Shown: positions 1 to 58,829, counted from the stretch's first letter. The stretch: DNA of 64,000 bases from Lingula anatina (GCA_051362555.1 CM120648.1:2910587-2974586), one strand, 5' to 3'. The notes: generated from the letters alone by a model not told the origin. Numbers and translations are program-made.

Positions 1-3000
1 GTTTCACCGGCGACGGCACAGCGTGTGATGATGTAGATGAATGTGCCCTGGCCACAGATGATTGCGCTGAGAACGCCACATGCGCCAACACCGTGGGCAG
101 TTTCACCTGCACCTGCCTAGCTGGTTTCACCGCGACGGCACAGCGTGTGATGATGTAGATGAATGTGCCCTGGCCACAGATGATTGCGCTGAGAACGCCA
201 CATGCGCCAACACCGTGGGCAGTTTCACCTGCACCTGCCTAGCTGGTTTCACCGGCGACGGCACAGCGTGTGATGATGTAGATGAATGTGCCCTGGCCAC
301 AGATGATTGCGCTGAGAACGCCACATGCGCCAACACCGTGGGCAGTTTCACCTGCACCTGCCTAGCTGGTTTCACCGGCGACGGCACAGCGTGTGATGAT
401 GTAGATGAATGTGCCCTGGCCACAGATGATTGCGCTGAGAACGCCACATGCGCCAACACCGTGGGCAGTTTCACCTGCACCTGCCTAGCTGGTTTCACCG
501 GCGACGGCACAGCGTGTGATGATGTAGATGAATGTGCCCTGGCCACAGATGATTGCGCTGAGAACGCCACATGCGCCAACACCGTGGGCAGTTTCACCTG
601 CACCTGCCTAGCTGGTTTCACCGGCGACGGCACAGCGTGTGATGATGTAGATGAATGTGCCCTGGCCACAGATGATTGCGCTGAGAACGCCACATGCGCC
701 AACACCGTGGGCAGTTTCACCTGCACCTGCCTAGCTGGTTTCACCGGCGACGGCACAGCGTGTGATGATGTAGATGAATGTGCCCTGGCCACAGATGATT
801 GCGCTGAGAACGCCACATGCGCCAACACCGTGGGCAGTTTCACCTGCACCTGCCTAGCTGGTTTCACCGGCGACGGCACAGCGTGTGATGATGTAGATGA
901 ATGTGCCCTGGCCACAGATGATTGCGCTGAGAACGCCACATGCGCCAACACCGTGGGCAGTTTCACCTGCACCTGCCTAGCTGGTTTCACCGGCGACGGC
1001 ACAGCGTGTGATGATGTAGATGAATGTGCCCTGGCCACAGATGATTGCGCTGAGAACGCCACATGCGCCAACACCGTGGGCAGTTTCACCTGCACCTGCC
1101 TAGCTGGTTTCACCGGCGACGGCACAGCGTGTGATGATGTAGATGAATGTGCCCTGGCCACAGATGATTGCGCTGAGAACGCCACATGCGCCAACACCGT
1201 GGGCAGTTTCACCTGCACCTGCCTAGCTGGTTTCACCGGCGACGGCACAGCGTGTGATGATGTAGATGAATGTGCCCTGGCCACAGATGATTGCGCTGAG
1301 AACGCCACATGCGCCAACACCGTGGGCAGTTTCACCTGCACCTGCCTAGCTGGTTTCACCGGCGACGGCACAGCGTGTGATGATGTAGATGAATGTGCCC
1401 TGGCCACAGATGATTGCGCTGAGAACGCCACATGCGCCAACACCGTGGGCAGTTTCACCTGCACCTGCCTAGCTGGTTTCACCGGCGACGGCACAGCGTG
1501 TGATGATGTAGATGAATGTGCCCTGGCCACAGATGATTGCGCTGAGAACGCCACATGCGCCAACACCGTGGGCAGTTTCACCTGCACCTGCCTAGCTGGT
1601 TTCACCGGCGACGGCACAGCGTGTGATGATGTAGATGAATGTGCCCTGGCCACAGATGATTGCGCTGAGAACGCCACATGCGCCAACACCGTGGGCAGTT
1701 TCACCTGCACCTGCCTAGCTGGTTTCACCGGCGACGGCACAGCGTGTGATGATGTAGATGAATGTGCCCTGGCCACAGATGATTGCGCTGAGAACGCCAC
1801 ATGCGCCAACACCGTGGGCAGTTTCACCTGCACCTGCCTAGCTGGTTTCACCGGCGACGGCACAGCGTGTGATGATGTAGATGAATGTGCCCTGGCCACA
1901 GATGATTGCGCTGAGAACGCCACATGCGCCAACACCGTGGGCAGTTTCACCTGCACCTGCCTAGCTGGTTTCACCGGCGACGGCACAGCGTGTGATGATG
2001 TAGATGAATGTGCCCTGGCCACAGATGATTGCGCTGAGAACGCCACATGCGCCAACACCGTGGGCAGTTTCACCTGCACCTGCCTAGCTGGTTTCACCGG
2101 CGACGGCACAGCGTGTGATGATGTAGATGAATGTGCCCTGGCCACAGATGATTGCGCTGAGAACGCCACATGCGCCAACACCGTGGGCAGTTTCACCTGC
2201 ACCTGCCTAGCTGGTTTCACCGGCGACGGCACAGCGTGTGATGATGTAGATGAATGTGCCCTGGCCACAGATGATTGCGCTGAGAACGCCACATGCGCCA
2301 ACACCGTGGGCAGTTTCACCTGCACCTGCCTAGCTGGTTTCACCGGCGACGGCACAGCGTGTGATGATGTAGATGAATGTGCCCTGGCCACAGATGATTG
2401 CGCTGAGAACGCCACATGCGCCAACACCGTGGGCAGTTTCACCTGCACCTGCCTAGCTGGTTTCACCGGCGACGGCACAGCGTGTGATGATGTAGATGAA
2501 TGTGCCCTGGCCACAGATGATTGCGCTGAGAACGCCACATGCGCCAACACCGTGGGCAGTTTCACCTGCACCTGCCTAGCTGGTTTCACCGGCGACGGCA
2601 CAGCGTGTGATGATGTAGATGAATGTGCCCTGGCCACAGATGATTGCGCTGAGAACGCCACATGCGCCAACACCGTGGGCAGTTTCACCTGCACCTGCCT
2701 AGCTGGTTTCACCGGCGACGGCACAGCGTGTGATGATGTAGATGAATGTGCCCTGGCCACAGATGATTGCGCTGAGAACGCCACATGCGCCAACACCGTG
2801 GGCAGTTTCACCTGCACCTGCCTAGCTGGTTTCACCGGCGACGGCACAGCGTGTGATGATGTAGATGAATGTGCCCTGGCCACAGATGATTGCGCTGAGA
2901 ACGCCACATGCGCCAACACCGTGGGCAGTTTCACCTGCACCTGCCTAGCTGGTTTCACCGGCGACGGCACAGCGTGTGATGATGTAGATGAATGTGCCCT

Positions 3001-6000
3001 GGCCACAGATGATTGCGCTGAGAACGCCACATGCGCCAACACCGTGGGCAGTTTCACCTGCACCTGCCTAGCTGGTTTCACCGGCGACGGCACAGCGTGT
3101 GATGATGTAGATGAATGTGCCCTGGCCACAGATGATTGCGCTGAGAACGCCACATGCGCCAACACCGTGGGCAGTTTCACCTGCACCTGCCTAGCTGGTT
3201 TCACCGGCGACGGCACAGCGTGTGATGATGTAGATGAATGTGCCCTGGCCACAGATGATTGCGCTGAGAACGCCACATGCGCCAACACCGTGGGCAGTTT
3301 CACCTGCACCTGCCTAGCTGGTTTCACCGGCGACGGCACAGCGTGTGATGATGTAGATGAATGTGCCCTGGCCACAGATGATTGCGCTGAGAACGCCACA
3401 TGCGCCAACACCGTGGGCAGTTTCACCTGCACCTGCCTAGCTGGTTTCACCGGCGACGGCACAGCGTGTGATGATGTAGATGAATGTGCCCTGGCCACAG
3501 ATGATTGCGCTGAGAACGCCACATGCGCCAACACCGTGGGCAGTTTCACCTGCACCTGCCTAGCTGGTTTCACCGGCGACGGCACAGCGTGTGATGATGT
3601 AGATGAATGTGCCCTGGCCACAGATGATTGCGCTGAGAACGCCACATGCGCCAACACCGTGGGCAGTTTCACCTGCACCTGCCTAGCTGGTTTCACCGGC
3701 GACGGCACAGCGTGTGATGATGTAGATGAATGTGCCCTGGCCACAGATGATTGCGCTGAGAACGCCACATGCGCCAACACCGTGGGCAGTTTCACCTGCA
3801 CCTGCCTAGCTGGTTTCACCGGCGACGGCACAGCGTGTGATGATGTAGATGAATGTGCCCTGGCCACAGATGATTGCGCTGAGAACGCCACATGCGCCAA
3901 CACCGTGGGCAGTTTCACCTGCACCTGCCTAGCTGGTTTCACCGGCGACGGCACAGCGTGTGATGATGTAGATGAATGTGCCCTGGCCACAGATGATTGC
4001 GCTGAGAACGCCACATGCGCCAACACCGTGGGCAGTTTCACCTGCACCTGCCTAGCTGGTTTCACCGGCGACGGCACAGCGTGTGATGATGTAGATGAAT
4101 GTGCCCTGGCCACAGATGATTGCGCTGAGAACGCCACATGCGCCAACACCGTGGGCAGTTTCACCTGCACCTGCCTAGCTGGTTTCACCGGCGACGGCAC
4201 AGCGTGTGATGATGTAGATGAATGTGCCCTGGCCACAGATGATTGCGCTGAGAACGCCACATGCGCCAACACCGTGGGCAGTTTCACCTGCACCTGCCTA
4301 GCTGGTTTCACCGGCGACGGCACAGCGTGTGATGATGTAGATGAATGTGCCCTGGCCACAGATGATTGCGCTGAGAACGCCACATGCGCCAACACCGTGG
4401 GCAGTTTCACCTGCACCTGCCTAGCTGGTTTCACCGGCGACGGCACAGCGTGTGATGATGTAGATGAATGTGCCCTGGCCACAGATGATTGCGCTGAGAA
4501 CGCCACATGCGCCAACACCGTGGGCAGTTTCACCTGCACCTGCCTAGCTGGTTTCACCGGCGACGGCACAGCGTGTGATGATGTAGATGAATGTGCCCTG
4601 GCCACAGATGATTGCGCTGAGAACGCCACATGCGCCAACACCGTGGGCAGTTTCACCTGCACCTGCCTAGCTGGTTTCACCGGCGACGGCACAGCGTGTG
4701 ATGATGTAGATGAATGTGCCCTGGCCACAGATGATTGCGCTGAGAACGCCACATGCGCCAACACCGTGGGCAGTTTCACCTGCACCTGCCTAGCTGGTTT
4801 CACCGGCGACGGCACAGCGTGTGATGATGTAGATGAATGTGCCCTGGCCACAGATGATTGCGCTGAGAACGCCACATGCGCCAACACCGTGGGCAGTTTC
4901 ACCTGCACCTGCCTAGCTGGTTTCACCGGCGACGGCACAGCGTGTGATGATGTAGATGAATGTGCCCTGGCCACAGATGATTGCGCTGAGAACGCCACAT
5001 GCGCCAACACCGTGGGCAGTTTCACCTGCACCTGCCTAGCTGGTTTCACCGGCGACGGCACAGCGTGTGATGATGTAGATGAATGTGCCCTGGCCACAGA
5101 TGATTGCGCTGAGAACGCCACATGCGCCAACACCGTGGGCAGTTTCACCTGCACCTGCCTAGCTGGTTTCACCGGCGACGGCACAGCGTGTGATGATGTA
5201 GATGAATGTGCCCTGGCCACAGATGATTGCGCTGAGAACGCCACATGCGCCAACACCGTGGGCAGTTTCACCTGCACCTGCCTAGCTGGTTTCACCGGCG
5301 ACGGCACAGCGTGTGATGATGTAGATGAATGTGCCCTGGCCACAGATGATTGCGCTGAGAACGCCACATGCGCCAACACCGTGGGCAGTTTCACCTGCAC
5401 CTGCCTAGCTGGTTTCACCGGCGACGGCACAGCGTGTGATGATGTAGATGAATGTGCCCTGGCCACAGATGATTGCGCTGAGAACGCCACATGCGCCAAC
5501 ACCGTGGGCAGTTTCACCTGCACCTGCCTAGCTGGTTTCACCGGCGACGGCACAGCGTGTGATGATGTAGATGAATGTGCCCTGGCCACAGATGATTGCG
5601 CTGAGAACGCCACATGCGCCAACACCGTGGGCAGTTTCACCTGCACCTGCCTAGCTGGTTTCACCGGCGACGGCACAGCGTGTGATGATGTAGATGAATG
5701 TGCCCTGGCCACAGATGATTGCGCTGAGAACGCCACATGCGCCAACACCGTGGGCAGTTTCACCTGCACCTGCCTAGCTGGTTTCACCGGCGACGGCACA
5801 GCGTGTGATGATGTAGATGAATGTGCCCTGGCCACAGATGATTGCGCTGAGAACGCCACATGCGCCAACACCGTGGGCAGTTTCACCTGCACCTGCCTAG
5901 CTGGTTTCACCGGCGACGGCACAGCGTGTGATGATGTAGATGAATGTGCCCTGGCCACAGATGATTGCGCTGAGAACGCCACATGCGCCAACACCGTGGG

Positions 6001-9000
6001 CAGTTTCACCTGCACCTGCCTAGCTGGTTTCACCGGCGACGGCACAGCGTGTGATGATGTAGATGAATGTGCCCTGGCCACAGATGATTGCGCTGAGAAC
6101 GCCACATGCGCCAACACCGTGGGCAGTTTCACCTGCACCTGCCTAGCTGGTTTCACCGGCGACGGCACAGCGTGTGATGATGTAGATGAATGTGCCCTGG
6201 CCACAGATGATTGCGCTGAGAACGCCACATGCGCCAACACCGTGGGCAGTTTCACCTGCACCTGCCTAGCTGGTTTCACCGGCGACGGCACAGCGTGTGA
6301 TGATGTAGATGAATGTGCCCTGGCCACAGATGATTGCGCTGAGAACGCCACATGCGCCAACACCGTGGGCAGTTTCACCTGCACCTGCCTAGCTGGTTTC
6401 ACCGGCGACGGCACAGCGTGTGATGATGTAGATGAATGTGCCCTGGCCACAGATGATTGCGCTGAGAACGCCACATGCGCCAACACCGTGGGCAGTTTCA
6501 CCTGCACCTGCCTAGCTGGTTTCACCGGCGACGGCACAGCGTGTGATGATGTAGATGAATGTGCCCTGGCCACAGATGATTGCGCTGAGAACGCCACATG
6601 CGCCAACACCGTGGGCAGTTTCACCTGCACCTGCCTAGCTGGTTTCACCGGCGACGGCACAGCGTGTGATGATGTAGATGAATGTGCCCTGGCCACAGAT
6701 GATTGCGCTGAGAACGCCACATGCGCCAACACCGTGGGCAGTTTCACCTGCACCTGCCTAGCTGGTTTCACCGGCGACGGCACAGCGTGTGATGATGTAG
6801 ATGAATGTGCCCTGGCCACAGATGATTGCGCTGAGAACGCCACATGCGCCAACACCGTGGGCAGTTTCACCTGCACCTGCCTAGCTGGTTTCACCGGCGA
6901 CGGCACAGCGTGTGATGATGTAGATGAATGTGCCCTGGCCACAGATGATTGCGCTGAGAACGCCACATGCGCCAACACCGTGGGCAGTTTCACCTGCACC
7001 TGCCTAGCTGGTTTCACCGGCGACGGCACAGCGTGTGATGATGTAGATGAATGTGCCCTGGCCACAGATGATTGCGCTGAGAACGCCACATGCGCCAACA
7101 CCGTGGGCAGTTTCACCTGCACCTGCCTAGCTGGTTTCACCGGCGACGGCACAGCGTGTGATGATGTAGATGAATGTGCCCTGGCCACAGATGATTGCGC
7201 TGAGAACGCCACATGCGCCAACACCGTGGGCAGTTTCACCTGCACCTGCCTAGCTGGTTTCACCGGCGACGGCACAGCGTGTGATGATGTAGATGAATGT
7301 GCCCTGGCCACAGATGATTGCGCTGAGAACGCCACATGCGCCAACACCGTGGGCAGTTTCACCTGCACCTGCCTAGCTGGTTTCACCGGCGACGGCACAG
7401 CGTGTGATGATGTAGATGAATGTGCCCTGGCCACAGATGATTGCGCTGAGAACGCCACATGCGCCAACACCGTGGGCAGTTTCACCTGCACCTGCCTAGC
7501 TGGTTTCACCGGCGACGGCACAGCGTGTGATGATGTAGATGAATGTGCCCTGGCCACAGATGATTGCGCTGAGAACGCCACATGCGCCAACACCGTGGGC
7601 AGTTTCACCTGCACCTGCCTAGCTGGTTTCACCGGCGACGGCACAGCGTGTGATGATGTAGATGAATGTGCCCTGGCCACAGATGATTGCGCTGAGAACG
7701 CCACATGCGCCAACACCGTGGGCAGTTTCACCTGCACCTGCCTAGCTGGTTTCACCGGCGACGGCACAGCGTGTGATGATGTAGATGAATGTGCCCTGGC
7801 CACAGATGATTGCGCTGAGAACGCCACATGCGCCAACACCGTGGGCAGTTTCACCTGCACCTGCCTAGCTGGTTTCACCGGCGACGGCACAGCGTGTGAT
7901 GATGTAGATGAATGTGCCCTGGCCACAGATGATTGCGCTGAGAACGCCACATGCGCCAACACCGTGGGCAGTTTCACCTGCACCTGCCTAGCTGGTTTCA
8001 CCGGCGACGGCACAGCGTGTGATGATGTAGATGAATGTGCCCTGGCCACAGATGATTGCGCTGAGAACGCCACATGCGCCAACACCGTGGGCAGTTTCAC
8101 CTGCACCTGCCTAGCTGGTTTCACCGGCGACGGCACAGCGTGTGATGATGTAGATGAATGTGCCCTGGCCACAGATGATTGCGCTGAGAACGCCACATGC
8201 GCCAACACCGTGGGCAGTTTCACCTGCACCTGCCTAGCTGGTTTCACCGGCGACGGCACAGCGTGTGATGATGTAGATGAATGTGCCCTGGCCACAGATG
8301 ATTGCGCTGAGAACGCCACATGCGCCAACACCGTGGGCAGTTTCACCTGCACCTGCCTAGCTGGTTTCACCGGCGACGGCACAGCGTGTGATGATGTAGA
8401 TGAATGTGCCCTGGCCACAGATGATTGCGCTGAGAACGCCACATGCGCCAACACCGTGGGCAGTTTCACCTGCACCTGCCTAGCTGGTTTCACCGGCGAC
8501 GGCACAGCGTGTGATGATGTAGATGAATGTGCCCTGGCCACAGATGATTGCGCTGAGAACGCCACATGCGCCAACACCGTGGGCAGTTTCACCTGCACCT
8601 GCCTAGCTGGTTTCACCGGCGACGGCACAGCGTGTGATGATGTAGATGAATGTGCCCTGGCCACAGATGATTGCGCTGAGAACGCCACATGCGCCAACAC
8701 CGTGGGCAGTTTCACCTGCACCTGCCTAGCTGGTTTCACCGGCGACGGCACAGCGTGTGATGATGTAGATGAATGTGCCCTGGCCACAGATGATTGCGCT
8801 GAGAACGCCACATGCGCCAACACCGTGGGCAGTTTCACCTGCACCTGCCTAGCTGGTTTCACCGGCGACGGCACAGCGTGTGATGATGTAGATGAATGTG
8901 CCCTGGCCACAGATGATTGCGCTGAGAACGCCACATGCGCCAACACCGTGGGCAGTTTCACCTGCACCTGCCTAGCTGGTTTCACCGGCGACGGCACAGC

Positions 9001-12000
9001 GTGTGATGATGTAGATGAATGTGCCCTGGCCACAGATGATTGCGCTGAGAACGCCACATGCGCCAACACCGTGGGCAGTTTCACCTGCACCTGCCTAGCT
9101 GGTTTCACCGGCGACGGCACAGCGTGTGATGATGTAGATGAATGTGCCCTGGCCACAGATGATTGCGCTGAGAACGCCACATGCGCCAACACCGTGGGCA
9201 GTTTCACCTGCACCTGCCTAGCTGGTTTCACCGGCGACGGCACAGCGTGTGATGATGTAGATGAATGTGCCCTGGCCACAGATGATTGCGCTGAGAACGC
9301 CACATGCGCCAACACCGTGGGCAGTTTCACCTGCACCTGCCTAGCTGGTTTCACCGGCGACGGCACAGCGTGTGATGATGTAGATGAATGTGCCCTGGCC
9401 ACAGATGATTGCGCTGAGAACGCCACATGCGCCAACACCGTGGGCAGTTTCACCTGCACCTGCCTAGCTGGTTTCACCGGCGACGGCACAGCGTGTGATG
9501 ATGTAGATGAATGTGCCCTGGCCACAGATGATTGCGCTGAGAACGCCACATGCGCCAACACCGTGGGCAGTTTCACCTGCACCTGCCTAGCTGGTTTCAC
9601 CGGCGACGGCACAGCGTGTGATGATGTAGATGAATGTGCCCTGGCCACAGATGATTGCGCTGAGAACGCCACATGCGCCAACACCGTGGGCAGTTTCACC
9701 TGCACCTGCCTAGCTGGTTTCACCGGCGACGGCACAGCGTGTGATGATGTAGATGAATGTGCCCTGGCCACAGATGATTGCGCTGAGAACGCCACATGCG
9801 CCAACACCGTGGGCAGTTTCACCTGCACCTGCCTAGCTGGTTTCACCGGCGACGGCACAGCGTGTGATGATGTAGATGAATGTGCCCTGGCCACAGATGA
9901 TTGCGCTGAGAACGCCACATGCGCCAACACCGTGGGCAGTTTCACCTGCACCTGCCTAGCTGGTTTCACCGGCGACGGCACAGCGTGTGATGATGTAGAT
10001 GAATGTGCCCTGGCCACAGATGATTGCGCTGAGAACGCCACATGCGCCAACACCGTGGGCAGTTTCACCTGCACCTGCCTAGCTGGTTTCACCGGCGACG
10101 GCACAGCGTGTGATGATGTAGATGAATGTGCCCTGGCCACAGATGATTGCGCTGAGAACGCCACATGCGCCAACACCGTGGGCAGTTTCACCTGCACCTG
10201 CCTAGCTGGTTTCACCGGCGACGGCACAGCGTGTGATGATGTAGATGAATGTGCCCTGGCCACAGATGATTGCGCTGAGAACGCCACATGCGCCAACACC
10301 GTGGGCAGTTTCACCTGCACCTGCCTAGCTGGTTTCACCGGCGACGGCACAGCGTGTGATGATGTAGATGAATGTGCCCTGGCCACAGATGATTGCGCTG
10401 AGAACGCCACATGCGCCAACACCGTGGGCAGTTTCACCTGCACCTGCCTAGCTGGTTTCACCGGCGACGGCACAGCGTGTGATGATGTAGATGAATGTGC
10501 CCTGGCCACAGATGATTGCGCTGAGAACGCCACATGCGCCAACACCGTGGGCAGTTTCACCTGCACCTGCCTAGCTGGTTTCACCGGCGACGGCACAGCG
10601 TGTGATGATGTAGATGAATGTGCCCTGGCCACAGATGATTGCGCTGAGAACGCCACATGCGCCAACACCGTGGGCAGTTTCACCTGCACCTGCCTAGCTG
10701 GTTTCACCGGCGACGGCACAGCGTGTGATGATGTAGATGAATGTGCCCTGGCCACAGATGATTGCGCTGAGAACGCCACATGCGCCAACACCGTGGGCAG
10801 TTTCACCTGCACCTGCCTAGCTGGTTTCACCGGCGACGGCACAGCGTGTGATGATGTAGATGAATGTGCCCTGGCCACAGATGATTGCGCTGAGAACGCC
10901 ACATGCGCCAACACCGTGGGCAGTTTCACCTGCACCTGCCTAGCTGGTTTCACCGGCGACGGCACAGCGTGTGATGATGTAGATGAATGTGCCCTGGCCA
11001 CAGATGATTGCGCTGAGAACGCCACATGCGCCAACACCGTGGGCAGTTTCACCTGCACCTGCCTAGCTGGTTTCACCGGCGACGGCACAGCGTGTGATGA
11101 TGTAGATGAATGTGCCCTGGCCACAGATGATTGCGCTGAGAACGCCACATGCGCCAACACCGTGGGCAGTTTCACCTGCACCTGCCTAGCTGGTTTCACC
11201 GGCGACGGCACAGCGTGTGATGATGTAGATGAATGTGCCCTGGCCACAGATGATTGCGCTGAGAACGCCACATGCGCCAACACCGTGGGCAGTTTCACCT
11301 GCACCTGCCTAGCTGGTTTCACCGGCGACGGCACAGCGTGTGATGATGTAGATGAATGTGCCCTGGCCACAGATGATTGCGCTGAGAACGCCACATGCGC
11401 CAACACCGTGGGCAGTTTCACCTGCACCTGCCTAGCTGGTTTCACCGGCGACGGCACAGCGTGTGATGATGTAGATGAATGTGCCCTGGCCACAGATGAT
11501 TGCGCTGAGAACGCCACATGCGCCAACACCGTGGGCAGTTTCACCTGCACCTGCCTAGCTGGTTTCACCGGCGACGGCACAGCGTGTGATGATGTAGATG
11601 AATGTGCCCTGGCCACAGATGATTGCGCTGAGAACGCCACATGCGCCAACACCGTGGGCAGTTTCACCTGCACCTGCCTAGCTGGTTTCACCGGCGACGG
11701 CACAGCGTGTGATGATGTAGATGAATGTGCCCTGGCCACAGATGATTGCGCTGAGAACGCCACATGCGCCAACACCGTGGGCAGTTTCACCTGCACCTGC
11801 CTAGCTGGTTTCACCGGCGACGGCACAGCGTGTGATGATGTAGATGAATGTGCCCTGGCCACAGATGATTGCGCTGAGAACGCCACATGCGCCAACACCG
11901 TGGGCAGTTTCACCTGCACCTGCCTAGCTGGTTTCACCGGCGACGGCACAGCGTGTGATGATGTAGATGAATGTGCCCTGGCCACAGATGATTGCGCTGA

Positions 12001-15000
12001 GAACGCCACATGCGCCAACACCGTGGGCAGTTTCACCTGCACCTGCCTAGCTGGTTTCACCGGCGACGGCACAGCGTGTGATGATGTAGATGAATGTGCC
12101 CTGGCCACAGATGATTGCGCTGAGAACGCCACATGCGCCAACACCGTGGGCAGTTTCACCTGCACCTGCCTAGCTGGTTTCACCGGCGACGGCACAGCGT
12201 GTGATGATGTAGATGAATGTGCCCTGGCCACAGATGATTGCGCTGAGAACGCCACATGCGCCAACACCGTGGGCAGTTTCACCTGCACCTGCCTAGCTGG
12301 TTTCACCGGCGACGGCACAGCGTGTGATGATGTAGATGAATGTGCCCTGGCCACAGATGATTGCGCTGAGAACGCCACATGCGCCAACACCGTGGGCAGT
12401 TTCACCTGCACCTGCCTAGCTGGTTTCACCGGCGACGGCACAGCGTGTGATGATGTAGATGAATGTGCCCTGGCCACAGATGATTGCGCTGAGAACGCCA
12501 CATGCGCCAACACCGTGGGCAGTTTCACCTGCACCTGCCTAGCTGGTTTCACCGGCGACGGCACAGCGTGTGATGATGTAGATGAATGTGCCCTGGCCAC
12601 AGATGATTGCGCTGAGAACGCCACATGCGCCAACACCGTGGGCAGTTTCACCTGCACCTGCCTAGCTGGTTTCACCGGCGACGGCACAGCGTGTGATGAT
12701 GTAGATGAATGTGCCCTGGCCACAGATGATTGCGCTGAGAACGCCACATGCGCCAACACCGTGGGCAGTTTCACCTGCACCTGCCTAGCTGGTTTCACCG
12801 GCGACGGCACAGCGTGTGATGATGTAGATGAATGTGCCCTGGCCACAGATGATTGCGCTGAGAACGCCACATGCGCCAACACCGTGGGCAGTTTCACCTG
12901 CACCTGCCTAGCTGGTTTCACCGGCGACGGCACAGCGTGTGATGATGTAGATGAATGTGCCCTGGCCACAGATGATTGCGCTGAGAACGCCACATGCGCC
13001 AACACCGTGGGCAGTTTCACCTGCACCTGCCTAGCTGGTTTCACCGGCGACGGCACAGCGTGTGATGATGTAGATGAATGTGCCCTGGCCACAGATGATT
13101 GCGCTGAGAACGCCACATGCGCCAACACCGTGGGCAGTTTCACCTGCACCTGCCTAGCTGGTTTCACCGGCGACGGCACAGCGTGTGATGATGTAGATGA
13201 ATGTGCCCTGGCCACAGATGATTGCGCTGAGAACGCCACATGCGCCAACACCGTGGGCAGTTTCACCTGCACCTGCCTAGCTGGTTTCACCGGCGACGGC
13301 ACAGCGTGTGATGATGTAGATGAATGTGCCCTGGCCACAGATGATTGCGCTGAGAACGCCACATGCGCCAACACCGTGGGCAGTTTCACCTGCACCTGCC
13401 TAGCTGGTTTCACCGGCGACGGCACAGCGTGTGATGATGTAGATGAATGTGCCCTGGCCACAGATGATTGCGCTGAGAACGCCACATGCGCCAACACCGT
13501 GGGCAGTTTCACCTGCACCTGCCTAGCTGGTTTCACCGGCGACGGCACAGCGTGTGATGATGTAGATGAATGTGCCCTGGCCACAGATGATTGCGCTGAG
13601 AACGCCACATGCGCCAACACCGTGGGCAGTTTCACCTGCACCTGCCTAGCTGGTTTCACCGGCGACGGCACAGCGTGTGATGATGTAGATGAATGTGCCC
13701 TGGCCACAGATGATTGCGCTGAGAACGCCACATGCGCCAACACCGTGGGCAGTTTCACCTGCACCTGCCTAGCTGGTTTCACCGGCGACGGCACAGCGTG
13801 TGATGATGTAGATGAATGTGCCCTGGCCACAGATGATTGCGCTGAGAACGCCACATGCGCCAACACCGTGGGCAGTTTCACCTGCACCTGCCTAGCTGGT
13901 TTCACCGGCGACGGCACAGCGTGTGATGATGTAGATGAATGTGCCCTGGCCACAGATGATTGCGCTGAGAACGCCACATGCGCCAACACCGTGGGCAGTT
14001 TCACCTGCACCTGCCTAGCTGGTTTCACCGGCGACGGCACAGCGTGTGATGATGTAGATGAATGTGCCCTGGCCACAGATGATTGCGCTGAGAACGCCAC
14101 ATGCGCCAACACCGTGGGCAGTTTCACCTGCACCTGCCTAGCTGGTTTCACCGGCGACGGCACAGCGTGTGATGATGTAGATGAATGTGCCCTGGCCACA
14201 GATGATTGCGCTGAGAACGCCACATGCGCCAACACCGTGGGCAGTTTCACCTGCACCTGCCTAGCTGGTTTCACCGGCGACGGCACAGCGTGTGATGATG
14301 TAGATGAATGTGCCCTGGCCACAGATGATTGCGCTGAGAACGCCACATGCGCCAACACCGTGGGCAGTTTCACCTGCACCTGCCTAGCTGGTTTCACCGG
14401 CGACGGCACAGCGTGTGATGATGTAGATGAATGTGCCCTGGCCACAGATGATTGCGCTGAGAACGCCACATGCGCCAACACCGTGGGCAGTTTCACCTGC
14501 ACCTGCCTAGCTGGTTTCACCGGCGACGGCACAGCGTGTGATGATGTAGATGAATGTGCCCTGGCCACAGATGATTGCGCTGAGAACGCCACATGCGCCA
14601 ACACCGTGGGCAGTTTCACCTGCACCTGCCTAGCTGGTTTCACCGGCGACGGCACAGCGTGTGATGATGTAGATGAATGTGCCCTGGCCACAGATGATTG
14701 CGCTGAGAACGCCACATGCGCCAACACCGTGGGCAGTTTCACCTGCACCTGCCTAGCTGGTTTCACCGGCGACGGCACAGCGTGTGATGATGTAGATGAA
14801 TGTGCCCTGGCCACAGATGATTGCGCTGAGAACGCCACATGCGCCAACACCGTGGGCAGTTTCACCTGCACCTGCCTAGCTGGTTTCACCGGCGACGGCA
14901 CAGCGTGTGATGATGTAGATGAATGTGCCCTGGCCACAGATGATTGCGCTGAGAACGCCACATGCGCCAACACCGTGGGCAGTTTCACCTGCACCTGCCT

Positions 15001-16128
15001 AGCTGGTTTCACCGGCGACGGCACAGCGTGTGATGATGTAGATGAATGTGCCCTGGCCACAGATGATTGCGCTGAGAACGCCACATGCGCCAACACCGTG
15101 GGCAGTTTCACCTGCACCTGCCTAGCTGGTTTCACCGGCGACGGCACAGCGTGTGATGATGTAGATGAATGTGCCCTGGCCACAGATGATTGCGCTGAGA
15201 ACGCCACATGCGCCAACACCGTGGGCAGTTTCACCTGCACCTGCCTAGCTGGTTTCACCGGCGACGGCACAGCGTGTGATGATGTAGATGAATGTGCCCT
15301 GGCCACAGATGATTGCGCTGAGAACGCCACATGCGCCAACACCGTGGGCAGTTTCACCTGCACCTGCCTAGCTGGTTTCACCGGCGACGGCACAGCGTGT
15401 GATGATGTAGATGAATGTGCCCTGGCCACAGATGATTGCGCTGAGAACGCCACATGCGCCAACACCGTGGGCAGTTTCACCTGCACCTGCCTAGCTGGTT
15501 TCACCGGCGACGGCACAGCGTGTGATGATGTAGATGAATGTGCCCTGGCCACAGATGATTGCGCTGAGAACGCCACATGCGCCAACACCGTGGGCAGTTT
15601 CACCTGCACCTGCCTAGCTGGTTTCACCGGCGACGGCACAGCGTGTGATGATGTAGATGAATGTGCCCTGGCCACAGATGATTGCGCTGAGAACGCCACA
15701 TGCGCCAACACCGTGGGCAGTTTCACCTGCACCTGCCTAGCTGGTTTCACCGGCGACGGCACAGCGTGTGATGATGTAGATGAATGTGCCCTGGCCACAG
15801 ATGATTGCGCTGAGAACGCCACATGCGCCAACACCGTGGGCAGTTTCACCTGCACCTGCCTAGCTGGTTTCACCGGCGACGGCACAGCGTGTGATGATGT
15901 AGATGAATGTGCCCTGGCCACAGATGATTGCGCTGAGAACGCCACATGCGCCAACACCGTGGGCAGTTTCACCTGCACCTGCCTAGCTGGTTTCACCGGC
16001 GACGGCACAGCGTGTGATGATGTAGATGAATGTGCCCTGGCCACAGATGATTGCGCTGAGAACGCCACATGCGCCAACACCGTGGGCAGTTTCACCTGCA
16101 CCTGCCTAGCTGGTTTCACCGGCGACGG
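1..16128 (+). repeat. Coding tandem array, 123-bp unit x131 plus 16 bp; each unit is one 41-aa cbEGF domain
   Basis: Unit starts (gtttcaccg) at 1, 124, 246 and then every 123 bp to 16113. Translation DVDECALATDDCAENATCANTVGSFTCTCLAGFTGDGTACD is invariant in the ORF track. Confidence 0.99.
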
Positions 16129-17079
16129 TAATACATGTTCGGATTACCGCAGTACGTACGCCTTTTTTTCTGGAATTGGCAATTTTTTCAATGCTTCATT
16201 TTCAAATTTAAAGTTTGAAATAATTAACTAATCATCTTTGGAAATATGATATGCCATGGATTTATTGGTCACCATTTTTGATACACAAATTAAATGCATT
16301 ATTGGAACTTACATTACAGCTTGTCCTGGACCCCCCGGAACGGAATTTTGGCACGTCTCCGACGATGCACAGAAGTGTTATCAATTTTTCAATATCAGCT
16401 CTGGTTTGGACTTTTCTGCCGCAAGTATTTATTGTTCTGAGCAAGCCAGTGGGGCGACTTTAGCAATAATCCGCACTGCAGAGGAAAATGTTTTCGTTGA
16501 AAATCTTATCCCACCTGAGTAAGTTCTGATCCATACATCCTACCAAAGTTGTTTCAATCATTTAGCAGAGTGATCTCTGTTCATAAATATACACACCATG
16601 CGCCCCATGATATAAATGTTTCAAAAGTTAAACTGCAAAGGTAATTCAGCTTCTTTTAAACGTTTCTAATCATATTATACCGCTTAATTACTATGGCTTA
16701 AGCCAAATTAGTTTCGACGCGCATGAATGCATTACCGACACATTTGTTAGCATTATTGTCTTCTATTTATTATTCAGATGCTTTTCATTTTTGCAGCCCC
16801 CCATTTTTCCGCAGCTGGATAGGTTTGATAAAAGTGACTGGCACCACGTGGCAGTGGTTGGACGGGACCCCCACAACATACGTCAACTGGGACGGCGACG
16901 GGGGTGGCCTGCCACAGGACAAAGCCACGCGGCAATGCGGCTCCATAAACGATAAGAATTCTCAGTTGCGTTGGAAGGACCAACGGTGCGACGCGTTGGG
17001 GAACGTAATATGTGAGGTACGGCTAAGTCGGGTAAACAGAGGCATCGGTAGAGTGAGGTCTTATACAAGCCTAAACTAA
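1..17079 (+). CDS. Giant multi-EGF (calcium-binding) protein with C-terminal C-type lectin domain; 5'-partial
   Basis: Exons <1..16151 (EGF array ending GDGNTCSDYR, donor A|gtacgt), 16320..16518 (ag|CT, phase 1, CPGPPG..CYQFF..A..YC..GATLAII..AEEN) and 16815..17079 (phase 2, DWIGL..WQWLDG..NW..C..WKDQRC...ICE). Phases are compatible. The last exon may instead splice at GAG|gtacgg (17016). A 1-bp deletion near 132 breaks the frame in the assembly. Confidence 0.85.
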
Positions 17080-17482
17080 GACTGCGTTCCCATAAACCCA
17101 TCTCTCTAGCTGGTTCAGTCTAACTCTGCGGGGCCTCTCGCTAAAGTTCTTTCAGTGTAATCAGCTTTATTGTCTGCCACACCCCCTTGAGGAACAAGGG
17201 GGTCATTGACTATCGTTAATGATCCCCTAGCAGCTTGAGCAGCAGTGCTGCGCTCTCAAACTCCTGTTATACCGGTGTGGCAGGAAAGGTTGTATGCTTG
17301 GAACCACAGTCCGGTCCCCCATTATATGGTACAGTTCACAATCGCCCCATATACTAACCTCAATCCTCAGACTAACCTCAACCTGTGTTATTGGTGTGGG
17401 AACCCAGACGTCCACTCCTAGGACTGCCATTCCTGGCTTTTGATCACTTGGGGAACGAGGTCTGGGCCACTCTCACGTCCCA

Positions 17483-17589
17483 CCCAGCAACACGTCACGT
17501 CGGGATCACGTGGCCAGGACGTTGCTACCACATTATGACGTCGTAGAGACGGGTTGGCCACGTGTTACCAACATGACGTGTTTGCTGGG
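17483..17589. mobile_element. Miniature inverted-repeat element with CCCAG termini (EnSpm/CACTA-like)
   Basis: cccagcaacacgtca...tgacgtgtttgctggg, palindromic interior, flanked by 2-bp direct repeat ca/ca. Confidence 0.65.
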
Positions 17590-18164
17590 CAGCCTTTGTT
17601 CACTAAGCCTGGTGAAATAACGACCTAGTCCAACCCGCAATTAAATAACAGATATAATTTTGGTGTGATAATAGCGTTATATCTTTTTCTTGCCATAATA
17701 TATATAAATTTGACCATGTAATCATTTGAAACCATACCCTTTCCAAAACTTAAATAAGTGCCTAGAAATAAATTGTTCAAAATCACCCCCCCCCCTCCGC
17801 CCTCGAGATGCCATAGTCCACTTAACAATCAAGTTTTACTAACAGATTAAAGAAGACACTTCAGAAGTAAAAAAAAAAACTTTCCATTCTTTCAGATAAC
17901 TCTTCAAAGTTCGTCACAGTCCGAGTCCTCGTTGAATCAATTTTCGGGAAACATTGGAAAACTGATTCGAAGGCGCCGTGGCACTCGACAGCCGTCTCCT
18001 GACCGCGTGCCTGGATTGCTACAATTGCTGAGCAACAGATGGAAATAACACTGAGCAAGCTACCACAGCCGTTACGGAGACTGAATAACGTAATTCTAAT
18101 GCTGACGGCATGCGCATATGCAATGATATTTACAGTCACCGACTTAACATCGCATTGGAAGGCG

Positions 18165-18300
18165 AAATTGGGATTGTATTTCGCGTCAGTAGGATTATAT
18201 TTGGCGTTGGCGTCAGTAGGATTGTATCTGGCGTTGGCGTCAATGGAATTGTATATGGCGTTATTAGGATTATGTTCCACGTCAGTAGGATTGTTTATTC
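18165..18300. repeat. Degenerate ~27-bp minisatellite
   Basis: Repeated gtcagtaggatt(a/g)tat(t/c)tggcgttggc units. Confidence 0.7.
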
Positions 18301-18535
18301 CAGTGTTATTTCAAAAATCAGTAGGAAGTTATTTTTTATTATTTTTTTCTCTAACACGCAGATGCCAAGCGTACCGCAGCACAGACGAGTAATGTGGACG
18401 TGTGGTTAATTAACACAGTATTATATTTTGTTTACCCTTGTCTTAATCGATGTTGATGGATGCTCTGTGCCAGTCGGACTGGTGTAAATATGACTTTTTT
18501 ATAATGATGTTCTTATTATATAACTATATCGACTA

Positions 18536-19089
18536 ATACCCCGTTCACACTACGCTCAGTTATCCGGATAAATTGCGAATTAGGTCACAATTCGAATAAA
18601 TGCAGTAGTGTGAACGCAAGAGGATTTTTGCAATGCGCATTTTCAAAATCCTGCAAGCGAGGTGGATTTCTAAGCGCGATCCGGATAACTTACCGGAATC
18701 GACACCTGTACAGATGTAACTGCGCATGTGTGCAGTTAAGTGCGGGTACCTATGAACGCTTGTTTATTACTTTAGCGATTGCACCAAACGTATTTGGAGG
18801 TCACCACTCACTACAACATGAGGAAACAAACTTATTTTGCCATCTTATACTTCTCAAGAATGCTGGAATGTCTTTAGAGTTGCATTTGTCGTCACAAATT
18901 TTTGTTGGTATTTTAAGATTTCATGTGCAGCGCATGCGCGAGTGTTCAAACAGGAAGTTAAACCTGAAATTTTCAACGTGTAATTCGGTTTCGCTTAGCG
19001 TGTGTGAACGCAATACCGAATCGAATTCCTCACGAAAAATTCGGATTATTGAAATGCGCATTTTTGCAACTGTAGTGTGAATGGGGTAT
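18536..19089. mobile_element. MITE (non-autonomous DNA transposon, possibly Harbinger-like)
   Basis: Terminal inverted repeats ataccccgttcacactac / gtagtgtgaatggggtat (1 mismatch), TA on both flanks, internal repeats of gtgtgaacgcaa and aatgcgcatttt. Confidence 0.75.
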
Positions 19090-20419
19090 TAGTGAAAGGC
19101 AGCCACTCACCTCAACTATAACCGTCAGAAGAAGCCTGTCATATAACAATTAATTGTGTAGAAACAAGGAAAGCTTCCTCTAATTAGATATGTTAATTTA
19201 TATAACTTTTGCCTTTTCTTGCAAATTTAGCAAATTAAATGCAAAATAAAACATTTAATTATTCCACTAAGATTAGGTTGAATATCTATGACAGACCAAG
19301 AAAAAAAAAACATCTCATGGTGGCTTGATGGGTCTAAGTTAAAGACGGTTGGATTGAATACCCTAGGTCGTAGGTTCACATTTGCATTATAGTTACATGT
19401 AGGCGTTAGATTAAGGAATCGTGGTTAGAGCTGGCGTATCAAACAGTCAGCTGAGGTCTGTTAAAATATTGTGCATATTAAAATGTTTAAGCGACAACAT
19501 TTTGAAAATGTTATCCAAATGTTATGTATAAAGTTTTCAACATAACGTTTAAGGAACGTTATAAAGATCTTTGAATAAAATTATTGAAAAGTTATGCAGA
19601 AATGTTACAGTGTCTACCTTTTTGAAATGTTTTTAAAATGCTATGCGTTAGCTGGGCTCATTAGCAGACTTTTACATTCATTTTGGTTCCTGTAACGCAA
19701 ATAATAATAATAGCCTAATAATAATAATAATAATAATAATAAGCCAGGTTCTGAGGTCTTGGATCGCATTCACAACGAGTTGAGTCATGGCTTTACAAAT
19801 CCTGGAACTAAATATGGCAGACGTACATGAAAAAAAAAACCCGCCTAATCTTTTAATAGTCTCTCCGCCTCTCACACGCCTCCCCATGCGTCGTTCCTGC
19901 GGGGGTACAGTCATTAAATCTCGGCTCCATCGGGACGACAAATAGGGAGGCGATTGCACTATTTTACAATTATTTTTAAGTCTCTCTCTCTCTCTTTCTC
20001 TCTCTGTATATACCGGGTACACATATGAACCAAATTACCAGACATATGACCATGGCCACAGTCGAACCCAGGAAAACCAGCTGTTTTATATTAAATACTA
20101 AGAGGCTCATTTCTACGCAAACATACGTTTCTATATATGATATTACCTGATTAGATGGGAGTCGGACGTTTGGACTCGCAGCGCATGCTTATTAAAAGAA
20201 GTAATACTGTGGTTCTATTGCGTCAATTGTGGTAGTGATGCAAGCAACCGGCACACACGCTGACATCAATACTAATCATCAGTAGAGTCCTGGGCATTGA
20301 ATATGCAAGAAGCATGTGTGCCATAATTATACCTATACAGAGTTATATTTATATTCAATAAAGCTTGGAAACCTCGTCATTCCAAATCTCCACAACATCG
20401 TGTTCAAATTAATTTGACC

Positions 20420-20490
20420 GCACCAATCGTAAACGTTCACCCAGTCATCCGCCGGATTCGTGCATTCATATAAGCAACGCGTAACGTATC
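20420..20490. repeat. Dispersed repeat, second copy at ~32846-32910
   Basis: gcaccaatcgtaaacgttcacccagtcatccgccggattcgtg vs gcaccaatcacaaacgttcacccagttatccaccggatttgtg. Confidence 0.7.
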
Positions 20491-23142
20491 AGCTACATGT
20501 AAACGAATAAAACGACCAGTCTAACGTCTGTCATTAGTGTTGTACCGGTACATTTACCAAAGTTTTGAAGCAATTTCCCAGTTTAATTTAAAGAGCTCTT
20601 CTTCCAAAACGCTTTGTCTTGTGCACACACCTTCCGTTTGCCCTTCCTCAAAACGTACAAAAAAAAAAGGTGACGTACGCGTCAGAAATGTCAGTCTCAC
20701 TGTCTGCACCGTGTACCCAGCACATTATGTTAATTGGATCTTGGTCCGCACGCAGAGCAACCCGCTTTACCTGTGGTCCGAGACACCTAATCATTTGACA
20801 CCGCGCAATTAAACGACATTTGCAATTGGCCAGCATATCCAATAACTGAGGATGATACTACTTACACACATGCTAACAGAACCCAAAAGGCAGGAAAAAT
20901 TGCACACTCTCTGAAACATCTTCAGAAACAGATCAACACAGCAGTCGAAAAAATTAGCATCATTATGCAAAGGAAAAGGAGAGCGAAAGTGGCATCATTT
21001 CAATGCATTTAAACAAGGCAAGGTAATGGAAATAAAAGCCCAATAAATTTTACTGCAACTGGAGTACACAGCGCGTAGGAAAAAAAATGGGATAAAAATT
21101 GTCGAAGCACCGCAGGCGGCAGAAGTGTATCAAGAAGGACAAGGCTTTACCGGTGGCGTTTTAAGAAGACCTCTCTCTGAAATGAAATCTATAATCACAA
21201 GGCAATGAGCGAGGGCCGTAATAAGCCTTAGCCAAGCAGCGAAAGTGGAGACAGAACTTCGTCTGGCATGCATGATCATCATAAAGACAGCTCTTGACAA
21301 CACGAAAAACGCGAGAAATCGTACCCACGCTGAAAGAGAGCAAAATTTGGATTGGGGAGGGAGAGACAGTGACCAAACCGCCACCGTTGCCCAATCATCG
21401 ACGGATTTAGTAAGACATGCTTTCACATATGAAGCATTTTTAAGAGATAGGAGACCCTAACTACGATGATCCAGTACGAAGGTATTGTTTTTCTTCTTTG
21501 CTGATAAAATCGATAGTAAGTCTTTAAAAAAGAAAGAAAGAAAAATACTGGCACCGCAATGTAGCACTTATTGTGATGTTTAAAACGGCGTTGAAAGCTG
21601 CTCAGGTCAGGGAGAACTGTTAAGAATCGACACCACAGGTTTCACACTGAAATCACTGCTGTTTCGTCATCAGCTCGAATCAGAAAAATTCATCCCAGTG
21701 CATTTTATGCGGCAGCTTTACCTCATAACACGGTAACATATTTCTGCACTTATGAGGAAAAAATCCTAACATATCGTTTCTCCTTCATTGCTTTTTGGGT
21801 GATGGCACGTTTAAAGAAAGTGATATAAAATCTATAGAAAGACTTTCTTTATTACATATGTTTCATATCGCGAATTGCCTGCAGACAACTTCCATTCTTA
21901 TCCAAGACCTGGCTCACGTAGGCCAACATGCGACGTCATTTTTAATACATTACAGCATGTTATTTCTACACGTATTGTGTAATGAATTTTTTTTCTGATA
22001 TGGTACTTGTTACGGACCGAAGCAGCCCGAACATAAAAAAACACAAACAACGAATATATTATAAACAGCTAACATACACTACATACACTAACTAATACTA
22101 ACATGCTGCAAAAACTTTAACATTTGTCAATACCCTGTGCAGTTAAATTCTAATAGGTTCGTAGACAGTTTTAAAGCACAATGTCACAGTTTTCAGAGTC
22201 CCAGTCTGGTGAACGATCCTCCCGATAGTGTGCCTCTCTGTCACTAAATGAGTGTTGTGCTCCTAGGAGAATTCTGTACTCTTGGGCCATCATATTGCGT
22301 CGTAACTTGTGTAAGACGTGATCCTATTTCACTGTCTGTCAATCCGCACGTGCTACGGTATTGCGCACTTGTAAGTCACTGTCACGAGGTTTGTTCACCT
22401 CTGTTGCTCAATGCAACATACAAATATGCTTTACCAATGCATTCACGGAATCGTGCAACTGTCCCATGGCTTTTTGGCATTGCCCATCACAAAGTACAGT
22501 TAATAAAGTACAGTTCTTGTACTGTAAAAGTGTTACACACTGTCCACACTCACGTTTTGCATCAGTTCATGTTCTCCGGAGTCTCGCACTTTATAGCAGT
22601 CCCGCACTTCATTTACATTATACAAGTATGCAGGCACATACGGTAATTATTCATATAAATTAAACAACATAAATTAGCTTAACTAAAATAATAAACACAA
22701 CAACGTCACATACTGCAACAACTCCTTCATGCACATACAAAAAAAAATCTAAGTAGGCTACCAGCTACAAATTTGAATACCCAGATAACGTTCAAAAATA
22801 AAACTAAGATTCCCTTCAATAAACTAATTTAAATTAAAACTAAAAGCCACAATTCCAGATTTATATTTGTTATGCCAGCCTATTCGGCTATGGTCACTTT
22901 TGTTCTAACAACACTTAACAAACTAACACTCCAAAACTAAGTTTCCACGCAAAATTCACTTTGTACAACTTAGTTCTCAATATTCATATATTTACAAGTA
23001 GCCTACATTAAACATATTATATGCACTACTGCATCGAATGAATTGTACTAAAAAGCAGTAAAGATAGATTTTGGAGTTTGACACTTTTTACAAAAGCATA
23101 CTGTTTGTAAGTAATTTTGGAATGTTACAATTCCAAATTCAC

Positions 23143-23601
23143 ACAAAAGCTTGCAAAGAGTGCTGACCCCCGACAAAACAAATAACTGAATAACAAATAA
23201 CTATGGAGTACTAATAAATTTAAGGTTAATCAACCTATAATTAACCATTAATTAGTAAGTGGAGCATCACCAAAATGTAATAATTTCTTTCCTCTTTATT
23301 TGTAACCTATCCTTAAAAATTAATTTTGAAATAATTAATATATAATTAATTAATGAATTACCACCAAAATCCAATAACTACTTCTTAGGCCCATTTGTCG
23401 CCTACCTTGAAAATTTCATCAAAGCTCCGTTCATCACGTTTAGACGGAAATGAACTAAGCATCAATAATAAATCGATTAACTAACGGGCCATCACCACAA
23501 CCGAATCATATATTCCTTGAACTATTTCTGACCTATTTTGAAAATTCATCAAAATCCGTCCACCACTTTTTGACTTGAATAACTACTTATAAATAAATGA
23601 A

Positions 23602-23633
<32 letters not shown>

Positions 23634-23790
23634 GTATCATCACCAAAATATAAACAGTTCTTTCTAGGTTCATTTGTAACATATTCTAAAATTTTCATCA
23701 AAATCCGTTCATTAACTTTTGCGTAAACCTGCTAACAGTCAAACAACCGAAAGAACGAACGGTAACCAAAACAATACACTGCCAAAAATA
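23143..23790 (+). mobile_element. Degenerate DINE-1/HINE-like non-autonomous element with internal tandem modules
   Basis: Repeated catcaccaaaat...aaaatttcatcaaaatccgttc modules. Shares aaaagc..agagtgc.gacc start and module sequence with the copy at ~61798-62020. Confidence 0.5.
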
Positions 23791-23907
23791 ATAACCAAAA
23801 TGTAATAATCCATGGTATACCTGTAATTGTTCCAAAGAGGCCATATTTTTGTATATTTTACATGCATAAATATATATGCATTCAATGTAATTGGAAATAT
23901 CAACATT

Positions 23908-24192
23908 CTATTTTTCCAAATAACAACACACTTTCACTTTCCCTTTGCCTTCTGTTACGACCGGATCTCCATCCTGGTTGATGGTACATGCCTATTGGTC
24001 ACATAGTCCATCATCTTTGGTTGCTGTGTACTGGATGAACTTCCCATCTGGGGATACACGGTGTATGCAGTGGTTATCGGTATCTGTGAGCAGTATATTG
24101 TCATATGCATCAACACAGACACCATGGGGGCGACCTAACTTGTTACCAGGTTATGTATACTGATACAGTGGTTCACCAGCTGCGGACAGGAT
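23908..24192 (-). pseudogene. TRIM-NHL C-terminal (NHL) pseudogene fragment
   Basis: Aligns by eye with 25438-25722 of the intact paralog. The Trp codon of DPWAC is TAG here (DQ*AC). Homology stops abruptly at ~24192 and no RING/B-box part is present. Confidence 0.85.
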
Positions 24193-24209
24193 TTCCAACA
24201 AATTTTGAA

Positions 24210-58711: not shown

Positions 58712-58770
<59 letters not shown>

Positions 58771-58787
58771 CATAGTTGTCGTCATCG

Positions 58788-58829
<42 letters not shown>

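Follow-up and report, generated by a model that had tools for sequence, protein, structure and literature searches.

Our analysis of a 64,000-nucleotide stretch of Lingula anatina DNA (hereafter, the window) supports a model in which positions 1–17079, read on the plus strand, are the 3′ part of a gene that would encode at least 130 identical epidermal growth factor (EGF) units of the calcium-binding type (cbEGF) in one intron-free frame, upstream of two exons predicted to encode a C-type lectin-like domain. We give about an even chance to the reading that the product is a secreted, acidic, glycosylated and Ca2+-stiffened rod, joined via its terminal domain into a fiber or tether, with a length set by unequal crossing-over.

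The array itself is real, and a chance origin of such an array is impossible. Tandem Repeats Finder returned a single tandem array at 1–16128 (period 123, 131.1 copies, 99% matches), and splitting at the unit motif gave 131 unit starts, with 129 of the 130 complete units identical. The 123-bp units, each coding for a 41-residue cbEGF, occupy 1–16141 on the plus strand and run past the 5′ edge of the window, beyond which lie the N terminus and the true length of the array. The first full unit (30–151) is 122 bp long, one G short at 132/133, and this one-base deletion shifts the frame. The open frame spans 71–16228; between 152 and the donor at 16151, it comprises 130 units, or 5,333 codons, that continue in frame into the lectin-like exons. 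The last unit, which leaves the consensus after 16128, and a short linker occupy 16019–16151 and are followed by a phase-1 donor GT at 16152. A first-pass annotation of the window had described a giant single exon of at least 131 identical, uninterrupted cbEGF repeats. The repeat number and near-perfect identity stand, as does the single exon for the visible part of the gene, but the frame is broken once, leaving 130 units in frame, and the array continues beyond the window.

Contigs from three DNA runs of three studies (X1, X2 and X4) were aligned to the last unit and 3.6 kb of flank. In each run, one contig extends from the last unit through both lectin-like exons (16099–17550 in X1, with 0 differences; 16101–17550 in X2, with 1; 16099–17067 in X4, with 3), which bears out at the DNA level the earlier claim that the array is joined to these exons. 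The window-type unit–unit junction has a depth of 1620 in X4, compared with 18.5 for the flank (88×), and of 25000 in X1, compared with 75; the latter figure is round and may, at a guess, be a ceiling, so its ratio of 333× is to be read as at least that. The main junction is not among the contigs listed for X2, which include single-base variants of it, probably read errors, at depths of 60–406 against a flank of 84, implying a very deep parent junction. Depth ratios of a flank transposon were similar in the three runs (285, 312 and 384×), whereas the summed depth over the unit differed widely (2794, 11756 and 502×). This combination hints at real copy-number differences, although GC bias (58.5% in the unit, 41% in the flank) and contig fragmentation confound the comparison. 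We dropped the summed depth over the unit (502–11756×) as a measure of copy number because it adds overlapping and error contigs together, and relied instead on individual junction contigs. Base 16063 is T in 18%, 49% and 41% of the depth in the three genomes, revealing other unit types in all of them; at least three types occur in the DNA, only one of which is present in the window. Thus, read depth confirms a high copy number. Its order of magnitude is real, as is much of the uniformity; the precise count, perfect identity and number of loci lie beyond what the depth data fix.

The unit is a canonical cbEGF. It translates to 41 residues with six cysteines in EGF spacing, and two units score 88.4 bits against Pfam EGF_CA (PF07645; cut-off 27). 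Both calcium-ligand patterns are present: D/N-x-D/N-E/Q before Cys1, which is the N-terminal Ca2+ motif of cbEGFs, and C3-x-N/D-x4-F/Y-x-C4. The second of these is taken from PMC8405936, and the unit fits the consensus for β-hydroxylation and for POGLUT2/3 given there. Each unit also holds one N-glycan sequon and the O-fucose pattern. As the first-pass annotation had stated, the unit contains no Lys or Arg; it also lacks His, and its net charge is −8. The visible part of the array protein would come to about 530 kDa without glycans. An AlphaFold model of four units has a mean pLDDT of 94 and the strand pattern of EGF domains, in agreement with the predicted tandem-EGF fold, and it matches EGF runs of NELL and Notch in structure comparison; its pTM of 0.67 does not fix the geometry between domains. 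Pairs of fibrillin cbEGFs are described as Ca2+-stiffened rods with a length of 59.6 Å (PMC7545174). At the resulting ~3 nm per unit, 130 units would have a contour of about 390 nm, consistent with the earlier proposal of a rod several hundred nanometers long. A further unit type was seen in loose contig ends of X1 and X4, in which Lys replaces the second Asp of the calcium motif (in the unit equivalent to 16019–16141), a change that would be expected to weaken Ca2+ binding at its junction.

Downstream of the array, also on the plus strand, predicted GT-AG splicing from 16151 to 16320 across intron 1 (16152–16319, 28% GC) preserves the frame. The first half of the lectin-like domain is encoded by a predicted exon at 16320–16518, which was placed by tblastn and by alignment to a Lingula paralogue (P0156, discussed below) and is without a Pfam match of its own. 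After intron 2 (16519–16796), the predicted last exon (exon 3; 16797–17079) encodes the second half and ends in a TAA stop at 17077–17079; candidate polyadenylation hexamers follow within 17640–17772 (ATTAAA at 17640 and AATAAA at 17767). Exon 3 matches Lectin_C (PF00059) with 35.6 bits (cut-off 22.6), the core cysteines and tryptophans of the domain align, and the WIGL motif is present. The first-pass annotation had joined two lectin exons in phase at 16151–16320 and 16518–16815. The frame and the domain hold, but the second acceptor is better placed at 16797, 18 bases upstream: both 16796/16797 and 16814/16815 are in frame, and 16797 aligns without gaps to the paralogue, with a score of 525 compared with 515. 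The site at 16815, in frame and with a good AG, ranks second. No hydrophobic segment is present in exon 3 (best 19-residue hydropathy, 0.43), in keeping with the earlier remark that no transmembrane segment is visible. Together with the stop codon, this is consistent with secretion as far as the visible part goes; the N terminus lies outside the window. A possible donor at 17016/17017, after the region of the last cysteine codon, makes a longer C terminus possible.

The rod had further been proposed to present a lectin at its tip. A domain of the Lectin_C type is indeed present, but this idea is weakened by the absence of the canonical sugar- and Ca2+-binding motifs: where EPN or QPD and WND stand in sugar-binding lectins, the window domain has LPQ and WKD, and the paralogue domain has APS and WKE, so neither carries the signature of classical Ca2+-dependent sugar binding. 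Such a domain may still bind sugar, because some bivalve lectins are described as binding with variant motifs (PMC12842671).

The same design occurs elsewhere in Lingula. When exon 3 was compared with 1.84 billion representatives, P0156 had the highest identity among the 150 matches listed (51% over a single stretch, E 4e-12), with 34 multi-domain proteins having a higher summed score. Of the 36 candidates from a word-index search that used only exon 3, none matched at E ≤ 0.01. P0156 is the L. anatina protein XP_023932855.1, a 212-residue model in which about 1.5 EGFs of this subtype directly precede the same lectin-like domain. It is identical to the spliced window model at 101 of 189 positions over the EGF and lectin-like domain. 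For its domain model, a C-type lectin-like fold is predicted (Z 19.0, rmsd 1.8, 126 residues aligned, top rows tied), a comparison made with the domain model of the paralogue rather than with the window's own spliced domain. XP_023932855.1 lies on a 986-kb sequence, whereas two TRIM proteins of the window are recorded on a 921-kb sequence, indicating at least two genes of this design. The automatic name of the paralogue, "adhesion G protein-coupled receptor E2-like", misfits its domains, which include no GPCR part. Its model begins within an EGF and may represent the stub of another giant array. No description of the protein was found in the literature searched. As a metagenome query it retrieved two contigs, matched only in the EGF part and at 48%, and the exact unit pattern retrieved no metagenome contigs.

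Comparison with known systems indicates that what is new here is length and homogeneity. The first-pass annotation had not recognized the architecture, yet a C-type lectin domain at the end of an EGF run is already found both in the Lingula paralogue and in octovafibrin, the egg-thread fiber protein of Octopus bimaculoides, which has 29 EGFs between two lectin domains (135 kDa; PMC10336842). Set against the window gene by its published description rather than by sequence, octovafibrin is the closest described architecture: a pure tandem EGF run with a C-terminal C-type lectin domain, in a lophotrochozoan, forming an extracellular fiber, to which the window gene corresponds if its predicted splicing is correct. 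Its terminal lectin domains are proposed to drive end-to-end assembly. Unlike the units of the window gene, its EGFs are described as not calcium-binding, and it has an N-terminal lectin domain, whereas the window gene has at least 130 identical cbEGFs and an N terminus beyond the window. The locus is an extreme variant of a fiber design that combines an EGF run with a lectin domain.

Other matrix proteins share fewer of these features. Fibrillin has tandem EGF runs in extracellular fibers, and its cbEGF pairs are Ca2+-stiffened (PMC7545174), but its 47 EGFs are divergent and are broken by TB domains (PMC10336842); no TB (8-Cys) domain interrupts the 130 consecutive units of the window. Fibropellins likewise place tandem EGFs in extracellular fibers, with up to 21 EGFs and an avidin-like end (PMC10336842), a domain that is absent from the visible part of the window gene, whose C-terminal domain is lectin-like. 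Drosophila Dumpy is a giant EGF-rich matrix protein with an internal array homogenized by unequal crossing-over in a large exon; however, it has more than 300 divergent EGFs distributed over 78 exons, the homogenized part consists of about 40 PIGSFEAST repeats rather than EGFs, and the protein ends in ZP and transmembrane domains, unlike the visible end of the window gene (PMC2930355). The flatworm protein Tmed-ap1 combines an N-terminal lectin domain with 19 EGFs and vWD domains (PMC9229212). Outside animals, region II of Marinomonas primoryensis MpAFP has about 120 identical Ca2+-stiffened domains and is proposed to act as a 0.6-μm extender with a binding tip; its 104-residue repeats are Ig-like and the protein is bacterial and cell-anchored, so that the likeness is one of analogy only, with no homology (PMC4083281).

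Two protein searches placed the EGF run among its relatives, covering the best 120 of 5317 matches and the best 120 of 275 (the latter 2933–9333 residues long), with lengths of 2000–2933 and above 9333 residues omitted. Among these 240 best EGF-rich matches, EGF counts reached at most 89, run lengths 44 and numbers of identical copies 13. Proteins of a soft coral (P0283), a sponge (P0302), a clam (P0284) and a brittle star (P0113) carry the same 41- to 42-residue cbEGF subtype with 13, 7 and 6 identical copies and runs up to 41–44. Judged from these sequences, local homogenization of this EGF subtype recurs in marine invertebrates, but with ten times fewer identical copies and inside multidomain proteins. 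The window array thus has about ten times more identical repeats than any relative among the 240 best matches, and no protein of this window was among the best 120 of 275 in the giant-protein search (2933–9333 residues). The omitted lengths and the tendency of databases to under-record such arrays leave uniqueness unproven. Neither this gene nor any array of more than 100 identical EGFs was described in the literature searched, which was thin in subscription papers.

These observations suggest how such a protein could work and arise. Each unit would bind one Ca2+ and, going by its consensus sites, carry an N-glycan, O-glucose and O-fucose, and calcium would stiffen the chain into a rod of about 0.4 μm or longer. 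The end domain would probably join rods to one another or to a partner rather than act in classical sugar binding, assembly via a terminal domain being proposed by analogy with octovafibrin. In the neighboring gene, a single EGF of this subtype occupies a phase-1 exon by itself, which suggests that the array arose through duplications within an exon of that kind. The exon could then have been enlarged and kept uniform by unequal crossing-over or gene conversion, in which case its length would differ between animals; the signs of unlike copy numbers between samples agree with the earlier suggestion that length could vary in this way, although the mechanism is inferred. The protein may belong to an egg coat or thread, a mucus or adhesive secretion, or a matrix. 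More tentatively, the intron-free exon could hold several hundred units in some animals and fewer than 100 in others, with a heritable length, in a small brachiopod family that annotation has reduced to stubs; we regard this extension as possible but on balance doubtful. Its basis is the depth in X1, which would translate into at least 333 units, more than 40 kb, more than 13,600 residues and a rod of about 1 μm.

Transcription was examined in five of nine RNA runs, in 6–25% of each, and all positive runs came from one study. Fourteen reads (about seven pairs; 10 in X16, 2 in X18 and 2 in X17), all in the sense orientation, matched the unit, and none was found in the portions of X19 and X22 examined. 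Six of the 14 cross a unit–unit junction at the 123-base period without an intron, so that the uninterrupted coding array of the first-pass annotation is also seen in RNA, albeit in sister unit types. The reads of X16 and X18 differ from the window unit at three synonymous places and a linker codon, and the two of X17 at eight or more places. The transcribed sister unit of X16 and X18 is 96% identical to the window unit, with four of five base differences synonymous (P 0.013–0.028, from few reads), as expected under selection on the protein. We conclude that a sister array is transcribed at a low level as an intron-free tandem; its units may belong to another locus, to another allele or to an upstream part of the same array. 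RNA reads at 17044–17250 and 18479–19093 were not counted as gene transcripts, since they lie on dispersed repeats and have loose ends on both sides.

Several observations weigh against the model of a secreted, working rod. None of the 14 RNA reads carries the window base at 16063, which makes up about half to four fifths of the DNA depth. No read fell on the lectin-like exons and no splice joint, whether from 16151 to 16320 or from 16518 to 16797 or 16815, was seen in the five partial runs; with 0.4 lectin-exon reads expected for 131 units, compared with 18 for three units, this blank is uninformative and lends no support. The frame is shifted at 132/133, which may reflect a sequencing or assembly error or a real lesion; no indel is present at the equivalent place (about 16121) in the contigs of X1, X2 and X4, which drop rare variants. 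No signal peptide is visible, as the N terminus lies beyond the window. Finally, the array is not spanned by any single read, the depth figures pool all loci and unit types, and X1 and X2 are possible sources of the window sequence, leaving X4 as the only clearly independent run.

Some of these points could mean that the window array is silent or decaying, a satellite of coding origin or a pseudogene that keeps expanding by unequal crossing-over, with the sister array as the working gene. The exclusive presence of other unit types in RNA, the frameshift, the lack of lectin-exon reads and the strongly unlike depths between samples would fit such a copy. However, 130 units and both lectin-like exons have stayed open with good splice signals, the lectin-like exons differ by only 0–3 bases over ~1–1.45 kb in the three samples, the differences between unit types are mostly synonymous, and the transcribed type could itself come from upstream in the same array or from another allele. 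We consider a silent copy unlikely on this evidence.

Somewhat less probable still is a membrane-tethered extender, in which an anchor at the N terminus beyond the window, or in exons after 17016/17017, would let the rod hold the lectin-like domain far out as a receptor or adhesin, much as in MpAFP. The N terminus is indeed outside the window, the domain is followed by a donor-like GT, and the paralogue likewise stops a few residues beyond this site. Many matches with the same EGF subtype are annotated as 7TM proteins or end in hydrophobic segments, and the neighboring gene joins a lectin domain to one such EGF and a Thr-rich stalk. Yet the lectin-like domain is followed by an in-frame stop at 17077, four candidate acceptors in 17100–25400 lead to no strongly hydrophobic segment (best 1.37, a weak test), and neither of the GAIN and 7TM families that mark EGF-TM7 adhesion GPCRs appeared among 75 of the 97 downstream open reading frames of at least 75 residues, a scan that leaves shorter exons outside.

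The count of 131 and the perfect identity could also be an assembly consensus, produced by collapse or gap filling from copies that are in reality somewhat mixed in sequence and distributed among several shorter arrays or loci. Tandem repeats can send gap-filling tools into loops, the record of the two TRIM proteins on a 921-kb sequence points to a scaffold-level assembly, only one of the three or more unit types is in the window, no contig spans the array, and a stub such as the 212-residue paralogue is what would be expected where arrays break assemblies. This account is improbable given the depth of the exact window-type junction in X4 and X1, which indicates many identical copies, and the single flank contig that exits the array at this gene in all three runs; a pure assembly invention is ruled out, as X4, with its 88× junction, is not flagged as a source. 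Least probable is a shell-matrix template, an acidic Ca2+-binding polymer organizing calcium phosphate deposition: the charge of −8 per unit, the EGF and lectin domains among Lingula shell proteins (PMC13425148), the eggshell mineral proteins among the tied top fold matches of the paralogue domain and the likelihood that trypsin proteomics would miss units without Lys or Arg are met by the report of no secreted acidic proteins among Lingula shell matrix proteins (PMC4595640), by zero occurrences of XP_023932855 in the supplement of PMC13425148 and by the fact that numerous other lectin-like domains tie with those fold matches.

The rest of the window, with a GC content of 36%, holds several other genes. 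The neighbor mentioned above (38217–34835, minus strand) has C-type lectin exons with an EPN motif, one 41-residue cbEGF exon of the same subtype (~36380–36257) and a long Thr/Pro-rich, mucin-like stalk. The two TRIM genes, with RING and B-box, are intronless and in tandem on the minus strand (27495–25441 and 30645–29329), and the proteins of both are recorded in databases with identical sequence; NHL repeats form the end of the first, and the second has no NHL match and terminates behind an acidic repeat region. At 18534–19089 lies an element of 555 bp that has inverted ends and a TA target and is present in about 300 copies by depth; the contigs of X1, X2 and X4 all skip it, indicating that the insertion is polymorphic. 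Exons of an NWD1-like STAND NTPase (AAA_16, weak; HTH_NWD1) lie at 47870–46240 (minus strand), and an exon with an ephrin-receptor ligand-binding domain and a cysteine-rich region, followed by an EGF exon, lies at 56969–58963 (plus strand), from an Eph-like or matrix protein.

In summary, if the array is translated as read, it would be a test case for long cbEGF chains in which every domain and interface is alike. Ca2+-dependent stiffness, glycosylation and persistence length could be measured on a few units and then scaled, which the divergent domains of fibrillin do not allow. The array would represent a class of giant genes that would escape both short-read annotation and trypsin proteomics, and a coding minisatellite of folded domains in which concerted evolution and length variation could be measured. 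Should several hundred units be present, the product would rank among the largest animal proteins, a natural disulfide-bonded homopolymer whose length would set fiber spacing or mechanics. If our model is true, the octovafibrin design would also occur in a second phylum, there built of calcium-binding units and more than four times as long.

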